Below, piece after piece: positions 17,015-23,896 of a stretch of DNA of 64,000 nucleotides (position 1 is the stretch's first letter; every line of letters starts with the position of its first letter). The DNA is from Candidatus Limnocylindrales bacterium. GTDB taxonomy: Bacteria; Chloroflexota; Limnocylindria; Limnocylindrales; CSP1-4. Position numbers and translations under genes: made by a program. Below the pieces are notes generated by a model. It was not told the DNA's origin, made no database searches, and saw only the letters and a list, made by a program, of their open reading frames with translations. Location of the stretch: contig JBBSCI010000001.1 in the NCBI GenBank assembly GCA_038250445.1, positions 1,524 to 65,523 of the forward strand, written 5' to 3'.

Positions 17015-17827
17015 TCAGTCCTTGTATTTCCGGTCGACCCAGATGAGCGCGACCGTGAAAAACGACGCCGCCACCCCGACCACGGGGGCGAGCAGGCCGC
17101 CCGTTCCCGCGGCGACCGCGAGCCACGACGCGAGCGCGCCGAGGAGATTGAACGTGATCGCCGCGATGTTCTGGATCCGCATCACCCGATAGCCCGGCGC
17201 CAGCAAGCTGGCGATGCCAGCCGTCGCGTAGCCGAGGCAACCTGCGCCGGCAAGGCGGAAGACCCAGGTATCGGTGCCGGCCAGACCGAACAGGTTCGCG
17301 AACGGCCCGGGAGCGATGAGCGGCAGCAAGCCGAACGTGGCCGCGGAGAGCGTCGCGAGCGCGAGCACGACCCGCGCCGGCGTGTCGAGCCGGCGGCCGG
17401 CGTCGATCTCGGAGCCCTCGTCGCGGCGGAGCCAGTAAGCGGCGATCACCGTGAAGACAGCACCCGCCCCGACGACGAACGGGACGATCGGCTGCTTCGC
17501 GCCCGTCGCCAGCTCGTACGCGCTCGCCGCGAACGCCCCGATCGTGAACGTCAGCGTCGCGATGGCCGGGATTCGAATCTGGCGCCAGCCGGCGCCCCAC
17601 GCGAGGGCGATGATCGCTGCGATGAAGTAGCCCGTCGTGGCCGCCCCACCGAGCCGGTAGATGAGCGGATCGTCGCCGCTGAAGCCGAGCGCCGACGCGT
17701 ATGCAGCCGTCGCGAGCATCGGCACCAGGCCGAAAACGAGCCCGGCCGCCGCCTGGGCGATGAGCGTGAACCGGAAGGGGAGCGTGACCGCCTGGTCGCG
17801 TCGCCTACCGGAGTCGATTGCCGTCAT
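17015..17827 (-). CDS. Integral membrane protein with internal 4TM+4TM tandem duplication
   Basis: 270 aa, ~8 TM helices; residues ~25-135 align with ~150-265 (AAGLVFGLVPMLATAAYASALGFSG / SAATFGLLPLIAPGPFANLFGLAG...); downstream of small protein 17887..18318 (59-nt gap). Confidence 0.55.
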   Translation of the reverse strand: MTAIDSGRRRDQAVTLPFRFTLIAQAAAGLVFGLVPMLATAAYASALGFSGDDPLIYRLGGAATTGYFIAAIIALAWGAGWRQIRIPAIATLTFTIGAFAASAYELATGAKQPIVPFVVGAGAVFTVIAAYWLRRDEGSEIDAGRRLDTPARVVLALATLSAATFGLLPLIAPGPFANLFGLAGTDTWVFRLAGAGCLGYATAGIASLLAPGYRVMRIQNIAAITFNLLGALASWLAVAAGTGGLLAPVVGVAASFFTVALIWVDRKYKD

Positions 17828-17886: not shown

Positions 17887-18318
17887 TCAACCGCCGAACT
17901 TCTCCTGGTACTCGCGCGACAGCGCATCGCCGGCACTCTGGACGATCTTCCCGACGATCGGATTCACGATCACGCCTGTGACCGCGCCGACGACGCCGGG
18001 TAGATGCTTCACGAACCAGTCCCTCGTTGCGGCCATGACCGAGACGTTCGGCTCCCCGACGCTCGCGGCACCCTCGAGGTCGTCGATCCGCTCGAGTGCG
18101 CGATCCTTTAGCTCAGGAGGCGCCGTCTGCTGGATCGTCGCCCGCAGCCTCGCGAACTCGTCGCCGAGCATCGCAAGTTCCTGCTCGCTCGGTCGCCCGA
18201 CGATCGTCACGCGCGACACGGTCTGTTGGATGTCCGACCCGGCGGCGATCGCGCCCTCGCTGGTGCCCGAGACATTGACGTTGATTCTGCCCGGCTCGGG
18301 CTTCCTCTCATCGGTCAT
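17887..18318 (-). CDS. Small protein sharing N-terminal motif with adjacent STAND NTPase; C-terminal glycine-zipper hydrophobic helix
   Basis: 143 aa; residues 11-41 RINVNVSGTSEGAIAAGSDIQQTVSRVTIVG resemble residues ~43-75 of upstream 817-aa protein (ISVNQQGTNSGLIAAGMNINQTQVNVAVTLGG, ~50% identity over 30 aa); C-terminus LPGVVGAVTGVIVNPIVGKIVQSAG; start overlaps stop of upstream gene (ATGA at 18315-18318). Confidence 0.55.
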   Translation of the reverse strand: MTDERKPEPGRINVNVSGTSEGAIAAGSDIQQTVSRVTIVGRPSEQELAMLGDEFARLRATIQQTAPPELKDRALERIDDLEGAASVGEPNVSVMAATRDWFVKHLPGVVGAVTGVIVNPIVGKIVQSAGDALSREYQEKFGG

Positions 18319-20768
18319 TCGTATGCCTCCCGTGCGACAGGTATGGATCTTGACTTCCGAAGCCGGCCGGTGATCGCCGCGAGCACACCGAACAGGATCC
18401 CGAACACCGGAGTCGCGAGCAACGTGGCGTCACCGAAGAGCGCCGTCCCCGCGACCAGTCCGACGACGGCGATGCCGATGCCCGCGACCGCGCCCCCGAT
18501 CGGTGCCGAGACGAGATGCCCGGCCAGGCCGCGAATGAGCGCGAGCGCCAACCCGACGATCGCGAGGGTCGACCCGACGTAGAACGCTGGCGAGGCCGTC
18601 GCGTCGCCGGCGAGCTTGATCCAGCCACTGCCGGAGCACTGGCGGCCGTTGCCCTCGATCGATCCCGAGACGAAGTAGAGCCCGGGAACACGCAGGGCGT
18701 CGGGGATCAGGATCTCGTCGCGTCCGGCCGAGGCCAGCTGGCCTATCATTCCGCGCCAGATCGTCGGCAGTCCGAGCACGTCGACGTGCCAGCTCGCGGC
18801 GGACCCGCCCAGGTCACCCACGCTGCCCGTCCAGCGGATCGCCCGATTGGGGTCGATGTCGAGGGGATCGGCGTTGACGTCCGTCGCGTTGATCCGGCGC
18901 GCGCTGCCGTCGGGCGTCGAGTAGACGACCTCGAGCTGGCAGGGATCGGCTGGCCAGATGACGCCCCTCGCCCTGGGTTGCAGGGCGACCGACAGGATCA
19001 CCGCGGCGGCGCTGATCGCGACGAAGGCGGCGGCGAGGATCGCGCCGGGAGGACCGCCGAACCGCGGCTGACGGGGTGCGTCGGGCTTTGGCTTCGGGTC
19101 GGTTTGGCGCTGGTCCTCGTGCTTCGGCGGGTCGTCGCGCGGCGGGATGGGTGGCGCCAGCAGCGCATTTGTGAACTTTAGGTTCGCCGCCGCGATTGCC
19201 GCACCGCTCGCCCCACCGACCCGGTTCCATGCCTCGAATGACCGGGTGAACGCCTGGCTCGCGCCGATACCGTCGTCGGCGCCGAGCGCCTGGACCCCGG
19301 CCTGGTTCAGCGCCCATGCCACTTCTGCCTCGCGGCCCATCGTCCTGGCGGCCCGCAGGCACGAATCGGTGAGCCGTTCCCAACCGCCCCAGCGACCGGT
19401 GAGGGCAAAGGCGCCCTCGGTGGCGCGGCCGAGGGCGAGCGCCGTCTCGGGTCGGCCGGTCCGCTCCGCCCACCCGATCAACGACAGGATCGGCTCGGCC
19501 TCGTCGACGACCTCCTGCATGATCCGAGCAGGCGACGACGCCCAGGCCGTGTAGTCGCGGGCCGCCTGGAGCCGCACGTCATCGAGTCCGCCGCGCTCCG
19601 ACCAGGCGTCCTGGATGTCGCGATCCAGCCGTACCGCGGGCGAGGCAGCACGGGTGAGATGACGCTGCTGGAGGTCGGCGATTTCCGCCGCGGTCGCCTC
19701 GGGAACGAGGCTGGCGAGGCGCTCCGGAGACAGCGCGGCGCCGTCCATGGCGGCGATCGTCGCCACGACCTTCTGCTGGCCGGGCGAGAGGCGGGCGATG
19801 ATGGCCGAGGCCGGTCCGGCCGCGTCGGATCGTTCGAGCTCGGCGGCGAGCTCCGGCAGTGTTCTGCCGCGCCACTGGGCGTCCTGGACGTCGCGAATGA
19901 TCCGCCCCGGGTGGCCGTCGTGGACCGCCGCGATTTGCCGGCCGGCATCGATCTCGTCGGCTGTCAGGTCGCGGACAGAGCCGACGGCGGCACGGGCCGA
20001 TCGGATGAGCTCGAGCGCGGCGTCCGGAGTGAGCCCCTCGAGCTTGAAGGCACGCGCCTGGCCGACGGGCAGCGGGGCCTCCGACGCGACAAGGAACGTC
20101 GACAGGCCGGCGAGCCGGACGAGGTCGTCGATGCGGGCCTCGGCCGAGACGTCGTCGATGATGACGAGGGCGTCGAGCTTGCCGAGCGGCTCGGCAAGGC
20201 GGGAGCCGCTCAGGTGCATCTTGAACGAGACCGCGAAGAAGGTATCGACCAGGTCCTCGCCGAGCTCCTCCCAGGTCCTGGCGCGACCGAGGAGGTAGGC
20301 GACGTCGGGCGGCGCCCCGGCCGGCGGCTCGTGGACGAGATGCTGGAGCATGGCGCTCTTGCCGATTCCGTCCTCGCCGAAGCACGTCACGACCGGCGCC
20401 TGCCCGAGTGCCTCGCCGATTCCCCGAAGCTCGCCGTCGCGGCCGATCAGCCCCCGGAAGTTGCGGACCGCCGGCCTGACCGGCCGCGGCCGCGGTGCGA
20501 TCACAAACGCGGCCTCGAGGTTCGCGAGCGCGGCAGGATCGCCGCCGCCGAGGGTCACGGCGACGTTGACCTGGGTCTGGTTGATGTTCATCCCGGCCGC
20601 GATCAGCCCGCTGTTCGTGCCCTGCTGGTTGACCGAGATGCTTGTCGGCGGCGACGGTTGGGAGGATGTGGTCACAGGCGCCTCCTGCTGCTGTCGACCA
20701 CGGTCCACTGTCGGCGTCTCGGCGGCGTCGCGCGCGTGCCCACGTCTGCTGCCCGGCAATCTGGCCAC
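18315..20768 (-). CDS. Membrane-embedded STAND (NB-ARC/AP-ATPase-like) NTPase with helical (TPR-like) region, TM helix, extracytoplasmic Cys-containing domain and C-terminal TM bundle
   Basis: Walker A VVTCFGEDGIGKSAMLQHL, Walker B KLDALVIIDDVS, sensor-like STFLVASEAPLP...LEGLTPDAALELI; long alpha-helical middle; TM GAILAAAFVAISAAAVILSVAL (~res 590); ~130-aa domain with two Cys; 2-3 further TM helices; N-terminal motif shared with the downstream small protein; precise start uncertain (first 40 residues low-complexity). Confidence 0.7.
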   Translation of the reverse strand: MARLPGSRRGHARDAAETPTVDRGRQQQEAPVTTSSQPSPPTSISVNQQGTNSGLIAAGMNINQTQVNVAVTLGGGDPAALANLEAAFVIAPRPRPVRPAVRNFRGLIGRDGELRGIGEALGQAPVVTCFGEDGIGKSAMLQHLVHEPPAGAPPDVAYLLGRARTWEELGEDLVDTFFAVSFKMHLSGSRLAEPLGKLDALVIIDDVSAEARIDDLVRLAGLSTFLVASEAPLPVGQARAFKLEGLTPDAALELIRSARAAVGSVRDLTADEIDAGRQIAAVHDGHPGRIIRDVQDAQWRGRTLPELAAELERSDAAGPASAIIARLSPGQQKVVATIAAMDGAALSPERLASLVPEATAAEIADLQQRHLTRAASPAVRLDRDIQDAWSERGGLDDVRLQAARDYTAWASSPARIMQEVVDEAEPILSLIGWAERTGRPETALALGRATEGAFALTGRWGGWERLTDSCLRAARTMGREAEVAWALNQAGVQALGADDGIGASQAFTRSFEAWNRVGGASGAAIAAANLKFTNALLAPPIPPRDDPPKHEDQRQTDPKPKPDAPRQPRFGGPPGAILAAAFVAISAAAVILSVALQPRARGVIWPADPCQLEVVYSTPDGSARRINATDVNADPLDIDPNRAIRWTGSVGDLGGSAASWHVDVLGLPTIWRGMIGQLASAGRDEILIPDALRVPGLYFVSGSIEGNGRQCSGSGWIKLAGDATASPAFYVGSTLAIVGLALALIRGLAGHLVSAPIGGAVAGIGIAVVGLVAGTALFGDATLLATPVFGILFGVLAAITGRLRKSRSIPVAREAYE

Positions 20769-21505: not shown

Positions 21506-23896
21506 ATGGCATCCATCGGCGTCATGGATAAGCGCGCCGCAGCGAAGGCTTCCGCTGAGACCGAGCGCCGTCGCAAGCACATCCCGGGCTTTGAAGTCGA
21601 TTGCGGCACCGGTCTGGAAGTCCCCCACGTCGGGATCGTCTTCGTTCACGGCATCGGCGCGCAGGAGCCCGGTGAGACGTTGCTCGATTGGGGCGGGGCA
21701 ATGATCGGCTTGCTCCTGGACAAACGCATCGCCCAGAAGACCGATGGCGATCCGGTCATCTCATGCGATCTGGATCCCTCTCCAGGGAAGTCGCGATATA
21801 TCGAGGTTGAGTTACCGAAGGCGTCTGCAAACGACGGAACGACGCTTCCGCGAAAGCACTGGATTCTGACCGAGGCGTGGTGGGCGCAGCGGGTGCGGCC
21901 ACCGCCGTTCGGCCAGATGGCGGACTGGCTCGGACCGCACGGCGCGATCAGCAGAATCGTGCTGGCGATCCTGCCGCAGGAGAAACGCAGGCACAACCCG
22001 AGACTGAGGCCGACCGCCAAGGAGTACGAGCTGAGGCGTGACCCCGTCCTCGGGCCTGAAGAGGCGGCCGAGCACGGACACGTCCCCGGTCGGATCCTCA
22101 GCCCCGACCACCCGATCGTGGACGCCCTGCGTACAGTGGGCCGGGCGAGCGCCGGACTCTATCTTCAGGCGGTATCGGCGCTGATCCTCGTCATATACGG
22201 GGCTCTTCGGACGATCGAGAAGCTCCTGCCGATCGGGCCCCTCAAGAATGGCGCCCTGACCCGGCCGATCGACAACTTCATGCTCGACTGGTTCGGGGAC
22301 GTATACGTCCTCCTGTCCGATCCGGCTCAAGCTGCGAGCGTCCGTGGTCGACTCGTGGACGCCATCCAAGACCTTCATGCAGCCAATTGCGAGACGGTCG
22401 TCGTTGTCGCGCATTCGGGCGGTGCCATCGTGAGTTACATGATGCTCGCCGATCCCGCGTACAAGCATCTTCGAGTCGATACCTTCATCACCCTTGGCGA
22501 GGGCCTGAACCTGGCCTGGCGATTGACGACTGGCCCGGACAAGAAGCTGGACGCGGAAACGTTCAACCGATATCGGCGCCTGTACTCCAGCGTCTTCGAC
22601 GATCGGCCGGAGTTGAGCTGGCACGACTTCTGGGCATCTGAGGATCCAGCTCCGGCTGGGGTGTTAGATCCCTACGAACGAACCCTGGATCAAGCGGGCC
22701 TCGGCCGAGTCCATAGCCACGCGATCTGGAATCGGCTCAGTTTCGCCGAGGACCATGGTGGCTACTGGGATAACGACGAGGAGTTCCTCCTGCCCATGCT
22801 TCGCCTGATCGACGGCGAACCAAGTGGTGGATCTGGGAGGTTCGAGACCGCGGCGCCGACCACCGATCCGTCCAATCGCCGCCGCCGTCGCCTTTCGGTG
22901 CTTTCCATCGGCCGTCAACTGTCGCTGGTCGGAGCGACGGCCTCGATCGTGACGGCATTTGCTTTGAACGGCTCAGGATCGATCGACGGATTGGCCAACA
23001 CGGTCGCGCACGCTTGGAGCGCGGTTCCAGGAGCCCAGATCACGAGTGATTTGCTCAACGGCGTTAGGGCCCAGAACCTCGCTGCATCGTTGCCTTGGAT
23101 GGTCCTCGCGCAAGCCGGCGTGTCGATCATCGCGGCAGTTATCGGTCTGATCACCCTGTTCGCTCTCATCGCGCCAGCTGAACGACCGATTCCATGGGCT
23201 CGAAGCGGAGGGTCCCGGATCCAATCGGTGCTTGAAATTGGTCCCCTGATCGTTGGGATTCCTGTCGCCATCGCCGTTGTGATTGCCGGCGTCAGATACA
23301 TCATTCGATCGAACCCGGAAGGCGCTCAGGTCGGTCTTTGGCTCGTTGTCGCTACCGCGGAGTTCGTGGTTTTGACCCTCTTCGTGTTGGTCATGTTCGG
23401 GTCGCCGTTCTCGACCGAGACGACGAGCCGAAGGTCCTCAAAACGTGATCTGATCGAGATGTCGTTGACGATCGTCGCGTTGATTCTCGTGAGCTTTCTG
23501 GCAATCGCCCCGTTCGTCTCGATCATCCTGTATCCCGAAGTTGGCCAGCTCGTCCTTGGGTCCCTGAGCGGGTATGCAGCCTTCAGCGTCGTTGGCCGCA
23601 TCGGGACCTGGCGTTGGAACGTTTGGGACGGCCGCGAACGCGTCGCGCTTCGCGCGGGAAAGGACAGCTACCCTCCGCTTCGGCGGGTCGTCATCCAGTT
23701 CTCGTTGCTACTCGCGATCGTGACGTGCCTGTTCCTGGCCGTCGTCCTCGAAAGTGACGCCCTGGCGATGACTGCTGCGACTGGCATCGGAATCTCTGTC
23801 CTGCTCGGCGTGGCTGTTGACGTCTTCAACGCGGCGCATCAGGAGCGAACCGCACCAACCGTGATGGGGCCCCGCGCGAGCGCATACAAGATGTAG
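21506..23896 (+). CDS. Membrane-anchored alpha/beta-hydrolase (lipase/esterase-like) with ~8-TM C-terminal domain
   Basis: N-terminal hydrolase fold: VGIVFVHGIGAQEPGE (oxyanion HG), nucleophile elbow VVVAHSGGAIVSY (GxSxG); C-terminal half is multi-pass membrane; region appears lower in GC than flanks by eye. Confidence 0.7.
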   Translation: MASIGVMDKRAAAKASAETERRRKHIPGFEVDCGTGLEVPHVGIVFVHGIGAQEPGETLLDWGGAMIGLLLDKRIAQKTDGDPVISCDLDPSPGKSRYIEVELPKASANDGTTLPRKHWILTEAWWAQRVRPPPFGQMADWLGPHGAISRIVLAILPQEKRRHNPRLRPTAKEYELRRDPVLGPEEAAEHGHVPGRILSPDHPIVDALRTVGRASAGLYLQAVSALILVIYGALRTIEKLLPIGPLKNGALTRPIDNFMLDWFGDVYVLLSDPAQAASVRGRLVDAIQDLHAANCETVVVVAHSGGAIVSYMMLADPAYKHLRVDTFITLGEGLNLAWRLTTGPDKKLDAETFNRYRRLYSSVFDDRPELSWHDFWASEDPAPAGVLDPYERTLDQAGLGRVHSHAIWNRLSFAEDHGGYWDNDEEFLLPMLRLIDGEPSGGSGRFETAAPTTDPSNRRRRRLSVLSIGRQLSLVGATASIVTAFALNGSGSIDGLANTVAHAWSAVPGAQITSDLLNGVRAQNLAASLPWMVLAQAGVSIIAAVIGLITLFALIAPAERPIPWARSGGSRIQSVLEIGPLIVGIPVAIAVVIAGVRYIIRSNPEGAQVGLWLVVATAEFVVLTLFVLVMFGSPFSTETTSRRSSKRDLIEMSLTIVALILVSFLAIAPFVSIILYPEVGQLVLGSLSGYAAFSVVGRIGTWRWNVWDGRERVALRAGKDSYPPLRRVVIQFSLLLAIVTCLFLAVVLESDALAMTAATGIGISVLLGVAVDVFNAAHQERTAPTVMGPRASAYKM

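Follow-up and report, generated by a model that had tools for sequence, protein, structure and literature searches.

Amyloid signalling between NLR proteins and effectors is established in fungi, and in bacteria it has been shown once, for the Bab/Agp pair. The described systems closest to the locus treated here are the Bell and Babybell (Bab) domains and the fungal HeLo and HeLo-like effectors, with the motifs BASS1-11, HRAM, PP and sigma (Dyrka et al. 2020, bioRxiv 10.1101/2020.01.06.895854; Ibarlosa et al. 2024, bioRxiv 10.1101/2024.11.07.622273). Effectors of the Bell, Babybell and HeLo types keep a glycine-containing hydrophobic helix buried in a helical bundle and free it upon amyloid templating, which is the presumed mode of action of HET-S, Bell and Bab. 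In all known cases, the effector domain precedes the motif, and this order was the premise of the published genome screens; those for bacterial amyloid signalling sequences (BASS) looked at effector C-termini only. Here, we describe a gene pair that may represent the opposite order. It is located in a stretch of 64,000 nucleotides (nt) from a Candidatus Limnocylindrales bacterium (Chloroflexota; assembly GCA_038250445.1, contig JBBSCI010000001.1, positions 1,524 to 65,523 of the forward strand), hereafter called the window. The pair consists of a gene for a protein of 143 amino acids (aa) and an adjacent gene for a STAND nucleoside triphosphatase (NTPase). We propose that the small protein acts downstream of the membrane-anchored NTPase as its signalling partner and most likely as its effector, i.e. 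that the two proteins form an amyloid-signalling pair with an inverted effector, and we assign a probability of about 0.5 to this reading.

The first evidence for the pair is a motif at the N-termini of both proteins, which had already been recognized in a first-pass annotation of the window, made from the sequence alone. The motif exists and it is specific: two copies, with scores of 69-72, are present in the 64-kb window, and nothing else reaches 38. For each locus of the family, the N-terminal 40 residues of the small protein were aligned with all six reading frames of the locus, in which the small gene itself had been masked. The best match was found in 46 of 55 loci at the N-terminus of an adjacent open reading frame (ORF) of 700-1300 aa on the same strand. 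The motif-bearing partner ORF is usually found immediately upstream of the small gene, in about nine loci immediately downstream of it, and the gaps between the two genes are mostly between -4 and +17 nt. Pair specificity was estimated with 23 pairs that remained after dereplication. The partner's own copy was the best match in 11 of these pairs and among the top three in 18, and the mean own-pair score was 62.3, compared with 39.4 +/- 2.4 for permuted pairs; none of 5000 permutations reached 62.3. Motif copies within a locus are thus more alike than copies from other loci, and we consider it very probable that the small protein is the signalling partner of the NTPase via this motif.

The composition of the motif, whose length is about 25-30 residues in both proteins, is compatible with an amyloid-type nature, a point that the first-pass annotation had not raised. 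Compared with the rest of the protein, the motif is enriched in G (15.5% versus 6.6%), Q (10.4% versus 3.3%), N (4.8% versus 1.6%) and I (9.7% versus 2.5%), and also in V, S and T, and it is depleted in K (1.5% versus 4.0%), P (1.0% versus 5.4%) and L (0.7% versus 9.9%). Enrichment of G, N, Q, V and I and depletion of K, P and L, in an alternating beta-type pattern, is the bias that has been reported for BASS, and the bias observed here agrees with it. The resemblance to BASS1/2-type sequences is limited to the general pattern, and the published BASS data sets (69 supplementary files, PMC8086366) do not contain the exact motif cores of the family, SGQVVVG, SGQVAVG and GQVAIG. In all standalone family members the motif is N-terminal; in the window protein it is followed by about 100 of the 143 residues.

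The two genes are tightly linked. In the window, the ATG of the small gene (18316-18318) overlaps the TGA of the NTPase gene (18315-18317) in the sequence ATGA. The pair is translationally coupled and conserved across phyla. The ORF of 143 codons contains the C-terminal sequence that had been quoted for it, i.e. it ends in ...WFVKHLPGVVGAVTGVIVNPIVGKIVQSAGDALSREYQEKFGG, which is also written ...RDWFVKHLPGVVGAVTGVIVNPIVGKIVQSAGDALSREYQEKFGG. The G+C content of the window is 67.6%, and many spurious overlapping ORFs are found in it, so that the small ORF, or only its hydrophobic tail, could be a non-functional chance product of a G+C-rich genome with abundant Gly, Ala, Val and Pro codons. The probability of this explanation is negligible, and the conservation data have in fact already refuted it: the protein is kept across phyla, with members in Nostoc, Bacteroidota and Anaerolineae, 348 cluster representatives are detected at E <= 1e-10, and the family shows a coevolution signal. 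The GGGAGG site in front of the gene, the ATGA overlap and the homologues in many phyla, including genomes of low G+C content, together show that the small gene is real.

A homology search with the single sequence yielded 7 relatives only, and the hydrophobic C-terminus is kept in all 7. A pattern scan with one genome per species and a narrowed alignment gave a set of 53 loci. Actinobacteria are represented by Streptomyces, Nocardia, Nocardiopsis, Nocardioides, Amycolatopsis, Fodinibacter, Intrasporangiaceae and Egibacteraceae, and Chloroflexi by Anaerolineae and Chloroflexia; further loci belong to Acidobacteriota, Gemmatimonadota, Bacteroidota and one archaeal metagenome-assembled genome (MAG). 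A profile search of a collection of 5.8 billion proteins added Nostoc and other cyanobacteria. The exhaustive profile search against 1.84 billion cluster representatives resulted in 532 matches with E <= 1e-3, among them the 348 mentioned above; the family is therefore counted as roughly 530 clusters at 50% identity. All named members are labelled "hypothetical protein", and neither the small protein nor the family consensus has a significant match to a family model in Pfam, NCBIfam, PADLOC or PHROGs. Sub-threshold matches were to DUF4404 and DUF5955 on the linker helices and to DUF456, DUF1269 and Gly-zipper_Omp on the hydrophobic segment. Plasmids and phages gave no match to the small protein with tblastn, and an origin from a mobile element or phage was ruled out on this basis. 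For two loci, in a Candidatus Nitrosopolaris MAG (L017) and in a Longimicrobiaceae MAG (L007), no adjacent motif-bearing partner was detected. The former is the archaeal occurrence, which may be real or may reflect a binning error or horizontal transfer. One Thermoanaerobaculaceae MAG contains two copies of the pair (L048 and L049) with identical small proteins.

The partner proteins belong to one STAND family, i.e. residues ~50-510 of the window NTPase align with the partners in 43 loci. The window NTPase itself has sub-threshold matches only, to AAA_16 and nSTAND6; several partners (L003, L008 and L046) pass the cut-off for NB-ARC or NACHT, and TPR repeats are also found. The partners have a Walker A motif, located ~80-100 residues past the shared one, as well as a Walker B motif. 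Most partners have a strong single transmembrane (TM) helix at about residues 480-550, after the NOD/TPR arm, and the domains C-terminal to it, i.e. PASTA, PAN, HYDIN/ASH-type Ig-like and CARDB-like domains, are typical of the cell exterior. The loci of the partners noted for a TM helix and exterior-type domains are L003, L008, L023, L046, L001 and L056. In the window NTPase, the first TM helix is followed by ~130 aa that contain Cys and are probably extracytoplasmic, and then by three TM-like segments (18372-18590; residues 727-745, 760-778 and 781-799). An NLR-type sensor that faces the cell exterior is unusual. The pairing with the adjacent NTPase, which the first-pass annotation had suggested, is borne out by the gene coupling and the pair-specific motif; the membrane anchor of the sensor had escaped it.

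As listed, the NTPase gene begins with the GTG at position 20768. A GGAGG precedes a second GTG, in frame at residue 32 (20675), and a start at this second GTG would put the motif ~10 residues from the N-terminus, as in the small protein and in other partners. The GTG at 20675 is likely the true start, and the protein would then have a length of ~786 aa.

Conservation of the small protein was analysed with 121 family members, which were used for column statistics, hydropathy and pattern counts. The most conserved columns are those of the C-terminal third. W101, F102, P107, P120 and G130 are invariant, G111 is present in 115 and G123 in 112 of the 121 members, and V113, V122 and V126 are nearly invariant. 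Position 115 is G or S, position 119 is H or N, position 124 is K or R in 104 members, and position 127 is mostly E, A or Q. The protein ends in the tail E-F-R-R-R-F-G, and the consensus of residues 131-143 is D.LAAEFRRRFG. The hydrophobic segment (residues 106-130, 14 residues from the C-terminus) and its aromatic and basic flanks are therefore the best-conserved columns of the family. Homologues without a hydrophobic C-terminus, which the first-pass annotation had named as a finding that would speak against its proposal, were not encountered among these sequences; on the contrary, this part is the most conserved of all.

A structure of the small protein was predicted with AlphaFold2, using the alignment of 121 sequences (predicted template modelling score 0.63). 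The predicted local distance difference test values stay below 50 up to residue 38; from residue 45 to the C-terminus (residue 143) they reach ~90 or more, and this part is modelled as six helices (45-65, 68-84, 92-105, 107-117, 120-129 and 131-141). As an independent check, mean-field direct coupling analysis (DCA) was applied to 301 sequences (effective number 225; numbering of the window protein). The top couplings include G111-G123 and V118-G123, showing that the two halves of the hydrophobic segment touch each other. F102 is coupled to V113 and V122, and K124 to E47 and E82. Further couplings connect residue 96 with 140 and 141, 94 with 137, and residues 77 and 80 with 97 (helices 2 and 3), and a ladder of 55-81, 58-78, 62-78, 62-74 and 63-71 connects helices 1 and 2. 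Residues 107-129 are thus predicted to form a helix-Pro-helix hairpin, with Gly111 packed on Gly123, as the core of a compact six-helix bundle (residues 45-143). The hairpin is predicted to be covered by F102, and K124 to form salt bridges to E47 of helix 1 and E82 of helix 2.

The strongest couplings of the whole protein, 25-32, 10-28, 14-26 and 25-30, lie inside the N-terminal motif, though the monomer model is disordered there. These couplings could reflect a beta-arch that is formed only upon assembly, or motif subtypes that co-segregate.

The bundle does not resemble a known structure. A PDB sequence search with the family profile gave coiled-coil noise only, Foldseek found nothing below E = 1 in the PDB and nothing below E = 0.4 in PDB and BFVD, and no likeness in sequence or fold to HeLo, HeLo-like, SesA, MLKL or Bab was found with Pfam (E <= 1), the PDB or Foldseek. 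A homotypic adaptor of the death-fold or EAD type, which would also have six helices and ~100 aa, was considered and rejected, since neither Pfam nor Foldseek supports it and the loci contain no second copy of the domain.

The first-pass annotation had described the hydrophobic segment as a glycine zipper, i.e. as one membrane helix of the kind found in holins and depolarizing toxins. Transmembrane glycine zippers, which reportedly go back to Kim et al. in 2005, are defined by the register (G/A/S)xxxGxxxG. The segment resembles them, and the Pfam Gly-zipper families, in being Gly-rich and apolar. In contrast, the register is missing: the strict pattern GxxxGxxxG is present in 1 of 121 members and a loose small-xxx-G-xxx-small pattern in 6, and the glycine zipper was rejected on these counts. 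A single GxxxG (G111xxxG115) is found in 72 members, and the conserved glycines of the model make an intramolecular helix-helix contact (G111-G123) instead. The Pfam model Gly-zipper_Omp matches 2 of the 121 members with a best E value of 0.005, below its 25-bit cut-off. In the family libraries no holin, toxin or Gly-zipper family matched above its cut-off; PHROGs gave no lysis or holin match to the segment, and PADLOC no match to the small protein.

The hydropathy of the segment is borderline. The Kyte-Doolittle maximum (19 residues) of the window protein is 1.76 at residues 108-126, and the family median is 1.63, ranging from 1.24 to 1.97. The segment of the window protein has a Wimley-White octanol sum of +1.4 and, in a simple Hessa calculation, a sum of +6.6 kcal/mol; the family median of the Hessa sum is +6.5 kcal/mol, i.e. 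strongly unfavourable. Within the hydrophobic segment H/N119, P120, K/R124 and E/Q127 are conserved, and a conserved His/Asn-Pro in the middle together with internal Lys and Glu is unlike a plain membrane helix. The segment is neither a glycine zipper nor a confident transmembrane helix. A constitutive single TM helix, which would make the small protein a tail-anchored, holin- or toxin-like pore former or depolarizer, is quite improbable. It would fit a Gly-rich, apolar and conserved segment close to the C-terminus, the Kyte-Doolittle maximum, the sub-threshold matches of the segment to Gly-zipper_Omp, DUF456 and DUF1269, and the fact that one source calls a homologue an "uncharacterized membrane protein". 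It is at odds with the pattern counts, with the unfavourable Wimley-White and Hessa sums, with the invariant proline and the conserved polar and charged positions, and with the lack of holin or toxin family matches and of a phage or plasmid context. Moreover, AlphaFold2 breaks the segment at N119-P120 and coevolution couples both arms, which contact each other and helices 1-3, unlike a lone TM helix.

In addition to the standalone proteins, the module of motif and helical domain is found at the C-terminus of longer proteins. EAD7 precedes the module in two proteins (P0068 and P0138), and a further member is a kinase/EAD7 protein (P0253). A minority of members are fusions with CHAT (P0206, P0222 and P0245), and one is a fusion with a DUF4062/TIR-like domain (P0195). 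The EAD7 fusion is located downstream of a transmembrane STAND protein with a matching N-terminal motif. The CHAT fusion is preceded by a 561-aa zinc-ribbon protein that ends in a motif of the type F-x-G-x-V-x-G-P-V-H-x-G-x-G-D-I. EAD7, CHAT and DUF4062/TIR-like domains are hallmark parts of NTPase-centred conflict systems, and these fusions support an output or effector context.

Several of these proteins deserve mention in their own right. The zinc-ribbon protein represents a second kind of partner, with a C-terminal copy of the shared motif and directly upstream of the CHAT-motif-domain protein (L058, 1673-3358 and 3491-4978), and in P0226 and P0230 this 561-aa protein is fused to the module of motif and domain. 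The gene for P0195 (L057, 4059-5102) adjoins a PDDEXK_GAPS4 gene, a candidate defence component, and no partner with a matching motif was identified on the 5.4-kb contig. P0165 (224 aa) lacks the beta motif and has a partial EAL domain joined immediately to the helical domain; a truncated gene call or a chimera from metagenome assembly may explain this architecture.

What is the function of the small protein in the pair? The N-terminus of the NTPase carries the shared motif and nothing else, and therefore an effector or output role of the small protein is the most economical explanation, probably as the output arm of a bacterial switch for cell death or defence. The effector role proposed in the first-pass annotation stands in this respect, whereas the glycine-zipper membrane helix does not hold. 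Activity at the membrane is suggested by analogy with HeLo and Bell, and membrane damage as the output of the small protein is at best an even bet.

The main alternative, which we regard as rather unlikely, is a C-terminal domain that functions as a soluble adaptor or regulator without a role at the membrane, with the hairpin simply being the core of its fold. Such a domain might cap the polymerization of the motif, act as a chaperone or set a threshold, or, once clustered on the NTPase, recruit or activate a host factor. AlphaFold2 and DCA place the hairpin in the core of the bundle and bridge K124 to E47 and E82, the segment has a weak hydropathy and conserved polar and charged positions, and the module follows CHAT, DUF4062/TIR-like and EAD7 domains, in which case the enzyme or another adaptor could be the output; all of this speaks for a soluble domain. 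However, the great majority of loci consist of two genes, neither of which has another effector domain, so that with a purely regulatory small protein the system would lack an output. The absence of a second copy of the domain from the loci argues against a homotypic adaptor of the EAD kind, and the aromatic and basic flanks and the location of the partner in the membrane fit a role at the membrane.

The following points weigh against an amyloid-signalling pair with a membrane-active effector. The hydropathy of the hairpin is borderline, its Hessa sum unfavourable, and each arm has 10-11 residues. A hydrophobic core helix is normal in soluble bundles, and burial alone implies no insertion. Sequence and fold likeness to HeLo, MLKL or any solved structure was not found in the PDB search and with Foldseek. 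PADLOC found no defence genes flanking the pair in the 64-kb window, and tblastn found no plasmid or phage copies of the family. The CHAT and TIR-like fusions mean that the module might be an adaptor, a regulator or an accessory to other effectors, and not the killing part. Common descent of linked genes could account in part for the likeness of the motifs within pairs, and the couplings inside the motif could stem from motif subtypes.

If the small protein is nevertheless the effector of an amyloid-signalling pair, the following sequence of events can be envisaged. A cue at or outside the membrane would oligomerize the NTPase, and its clustered N-terminal motifs would take on a cross-beta fold and template the motif of the small protein. 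The polymerization would strain helix 1 (E47), break the link between E47 and K124 and open the bundle. The freed hairpin, flanked by WFxK ... EFRRRF, may straighten to a kinked helix of 23 residues with a polar stripe (H/N119, K124, E/Q127). It could then insert into the cytoplasmic membrane and perturb it, leading to growth arrest or death.

Table 1. Features of the gene pair in the window (positions of the 64,000-nt stretch).
Feature	Position	Strand	Basis
Small partner gene, 143 aa + stop codon	17887..18318	-	ORF; homologues across phyla
C-terminal amphipathic helix, residues 131-143	17890..17928	-	AlphaFold2, column statistics, couplings to helix 92-105
Conserved hydrophobic Gly/Pro helical hairpin (predicted), residues 106-130 (LPGVVGAVTGVIVNPIVGKIVQSAG)	17929..18003	-	Column statistics, AlphaFold2, couplings
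Three amphipathic helices (residues 45-65, 68-84, 92-105), ending in invariant W101-F102	18004..18186	-	AlphaFold2, couplings, column statistics
N-terminal beta-type motif of the small protein, residues 9-40 (PGRINVNVSGTSEGAIAAGSDIQQTVSRVTIV)	18199..18294	-	Common to NTPase N-terminus; predicted disordered in monomer
Shine-Dalgarno-like GGGAGG, 7 nt 5' of small-gene ATG	18326..18331	-	Read from sequence
Membrane-anchored STAND/NLR-like P-loop NTPase, 817 aa as listed	18315..20768	-	Walker motifs, TM segments, homology to partners
First TM helix of NTPase, residues 576-594, Kyte-Doolittle 2.59	18987..19043	-	Hydropathy
Walker B of NTPase, LVIIDDV	20148..20168	-	Sequence
Walker A of NTPase, GEDGIGKS	20355..20378	-	Sequence
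NTPase-side motif copy (TSISVNQQGTNSGLIAAGMNINQTQVNVAV)	20556..20648	-	Motif alignment

The pair has two further neighbours in the window. On the same strand, 60 nt downstream of the small gene, a gene for a 270-aa multi-TM protein without a family match is found (17015-17827, minus strand). It is not kept beside the pair elsewhere and is probably unrelated; no terminator-like site was found, and co-transcription is possible. Divergent from the pair, a gene for a 796-aa protein (21506-23896, plus strand) shows a weak match to a PGAP1-like alpha/beta-hydrolase and has a multi-TM C-terminal half. A conserved third gene was considered and rejected, as the 270-aa protein, a DinB-like protein and the PGAP1-like hydrolase were not found in the other loci.

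An amyloid-signalling pair with an inverted effector would mean that ~530 unannotated clusters follow the known logic with the opposite polarity and an unrelated helical domain. The existence of a family of opposite polarity suggests that the catalogue of amyloid-signalling systems is probably incomplete. A TM NLR with PASTA, PAN or Ig-like domains would tie NLR-like signalling to the envelope or to cues from outside, and not to cytoplasmic phage proteins. A more far-reaching version, which we put forward only tentatively and regard as less probable than its negation, is a mirror image of HeLo and Bell, i.e. a new executioner domain, the hairpin of which is released by N-terminal amyloid templating and which is driven by a TM NLR with an outward sensor. 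If true, this would be an outside-in, amyloid-relayed bacterial pathway of death or dormancy that watches the envelope or the environment instead of the cytoplasm. The hypothesis is directly testable, given the small size of the proteins and the sharp predictions, which concern specific Gly, Pro and Lys residues, a pair of short peptides and an operon of two genes. We found no description of the family or of TM NLRs with amyloid motifs in the literature, in a search that was incomplete and does not prove their absence.

For comparison with membrane-active proteins in general, "inside-out" pore formers are instructive. The pore domain of colicins, Bcl-2/Bax and the T domain of diphtheria toxin hold a buried hydrophobic hairpin among amphipathic helices at rest. 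The model of the small protein shares this feature, i.e. a hydrophobic helical hairpin is predicted to be buried among amphipathic helices. The differences are that the arms are only ~10-11 residues long and that Foldseek detected no fold match; the human Bcl-2 family protein BFK appeared at E = 8.5, which is not significant.

A second comparison concerns EACC1, a single TM helix with alpha+beta extensions that is encoded 5' of a caspase gene (Kaur et al. 2020). Both are small constant components with a conserved hydrophobic helix that has a small-residue or Gly patch, and both occur standalone or fused to EADs. A further similarity is the connection with proteins of the caspase superfamily and with signalling close to the membrane in multicellular bacteria. 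In contrast, the family described here has a predicted six-helix bundle and an N-terminal beta motif, its partner is a STAND NTPase, and CHAT is found only in the minority fusions. Pfam, which presumably holds an EACC1 model, gave no match to a family of that name for any member at E <= 1-5.

The Bell and HeLo-type systems differ from the locus in several respects. The known effectors have the motif at the C-terminus, and here it is N-terminal, with the hydrophobic element near the C-terminus. That element is a predicted helix-Pro-helix hairpin (106-130), whereas the known systems have an N-terminal helix, with a start of the "MEPIS" type and an acidic residue at position 2-3; the N-terminus of the small protein is polar, followed by the beta motif, and has no hydrophobic helix. 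Matches to Pfam HeLo, HeLo-like and SesA and to solved structures (Foldseek) are lacking here, and the BASS data sets lack the motif cores of the family. Furthermore, the small gene is usually located downstream of the NTPase gene, and the NTPase is membrane-anchored and has extracytoplasmic domains. The similarities concern the architecture of the whole system. In both cases, a protein of ~140 aa is encoded beside an NLR-like NTPase and collinear with it, often with overlapping ORFs. A motif of ~25 residues rich in G, N, Q, V and I is found both in the small protein and at the NTPase N-terminus, and it co-varies in pairs. Both have an all-helical bundle that hides, in the present case according to the model, a conserved Gly-containing hydrophobic element, and both are enriched in filamentous or multicellular lineages (Streptomyces, Nocardia, Nostoc and Chloroflexi). 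From this analogy we infer that the pair would work like HET-S/NWD2, Bell/BASS and Bab/Agp, with the polarity of the effector reversed.

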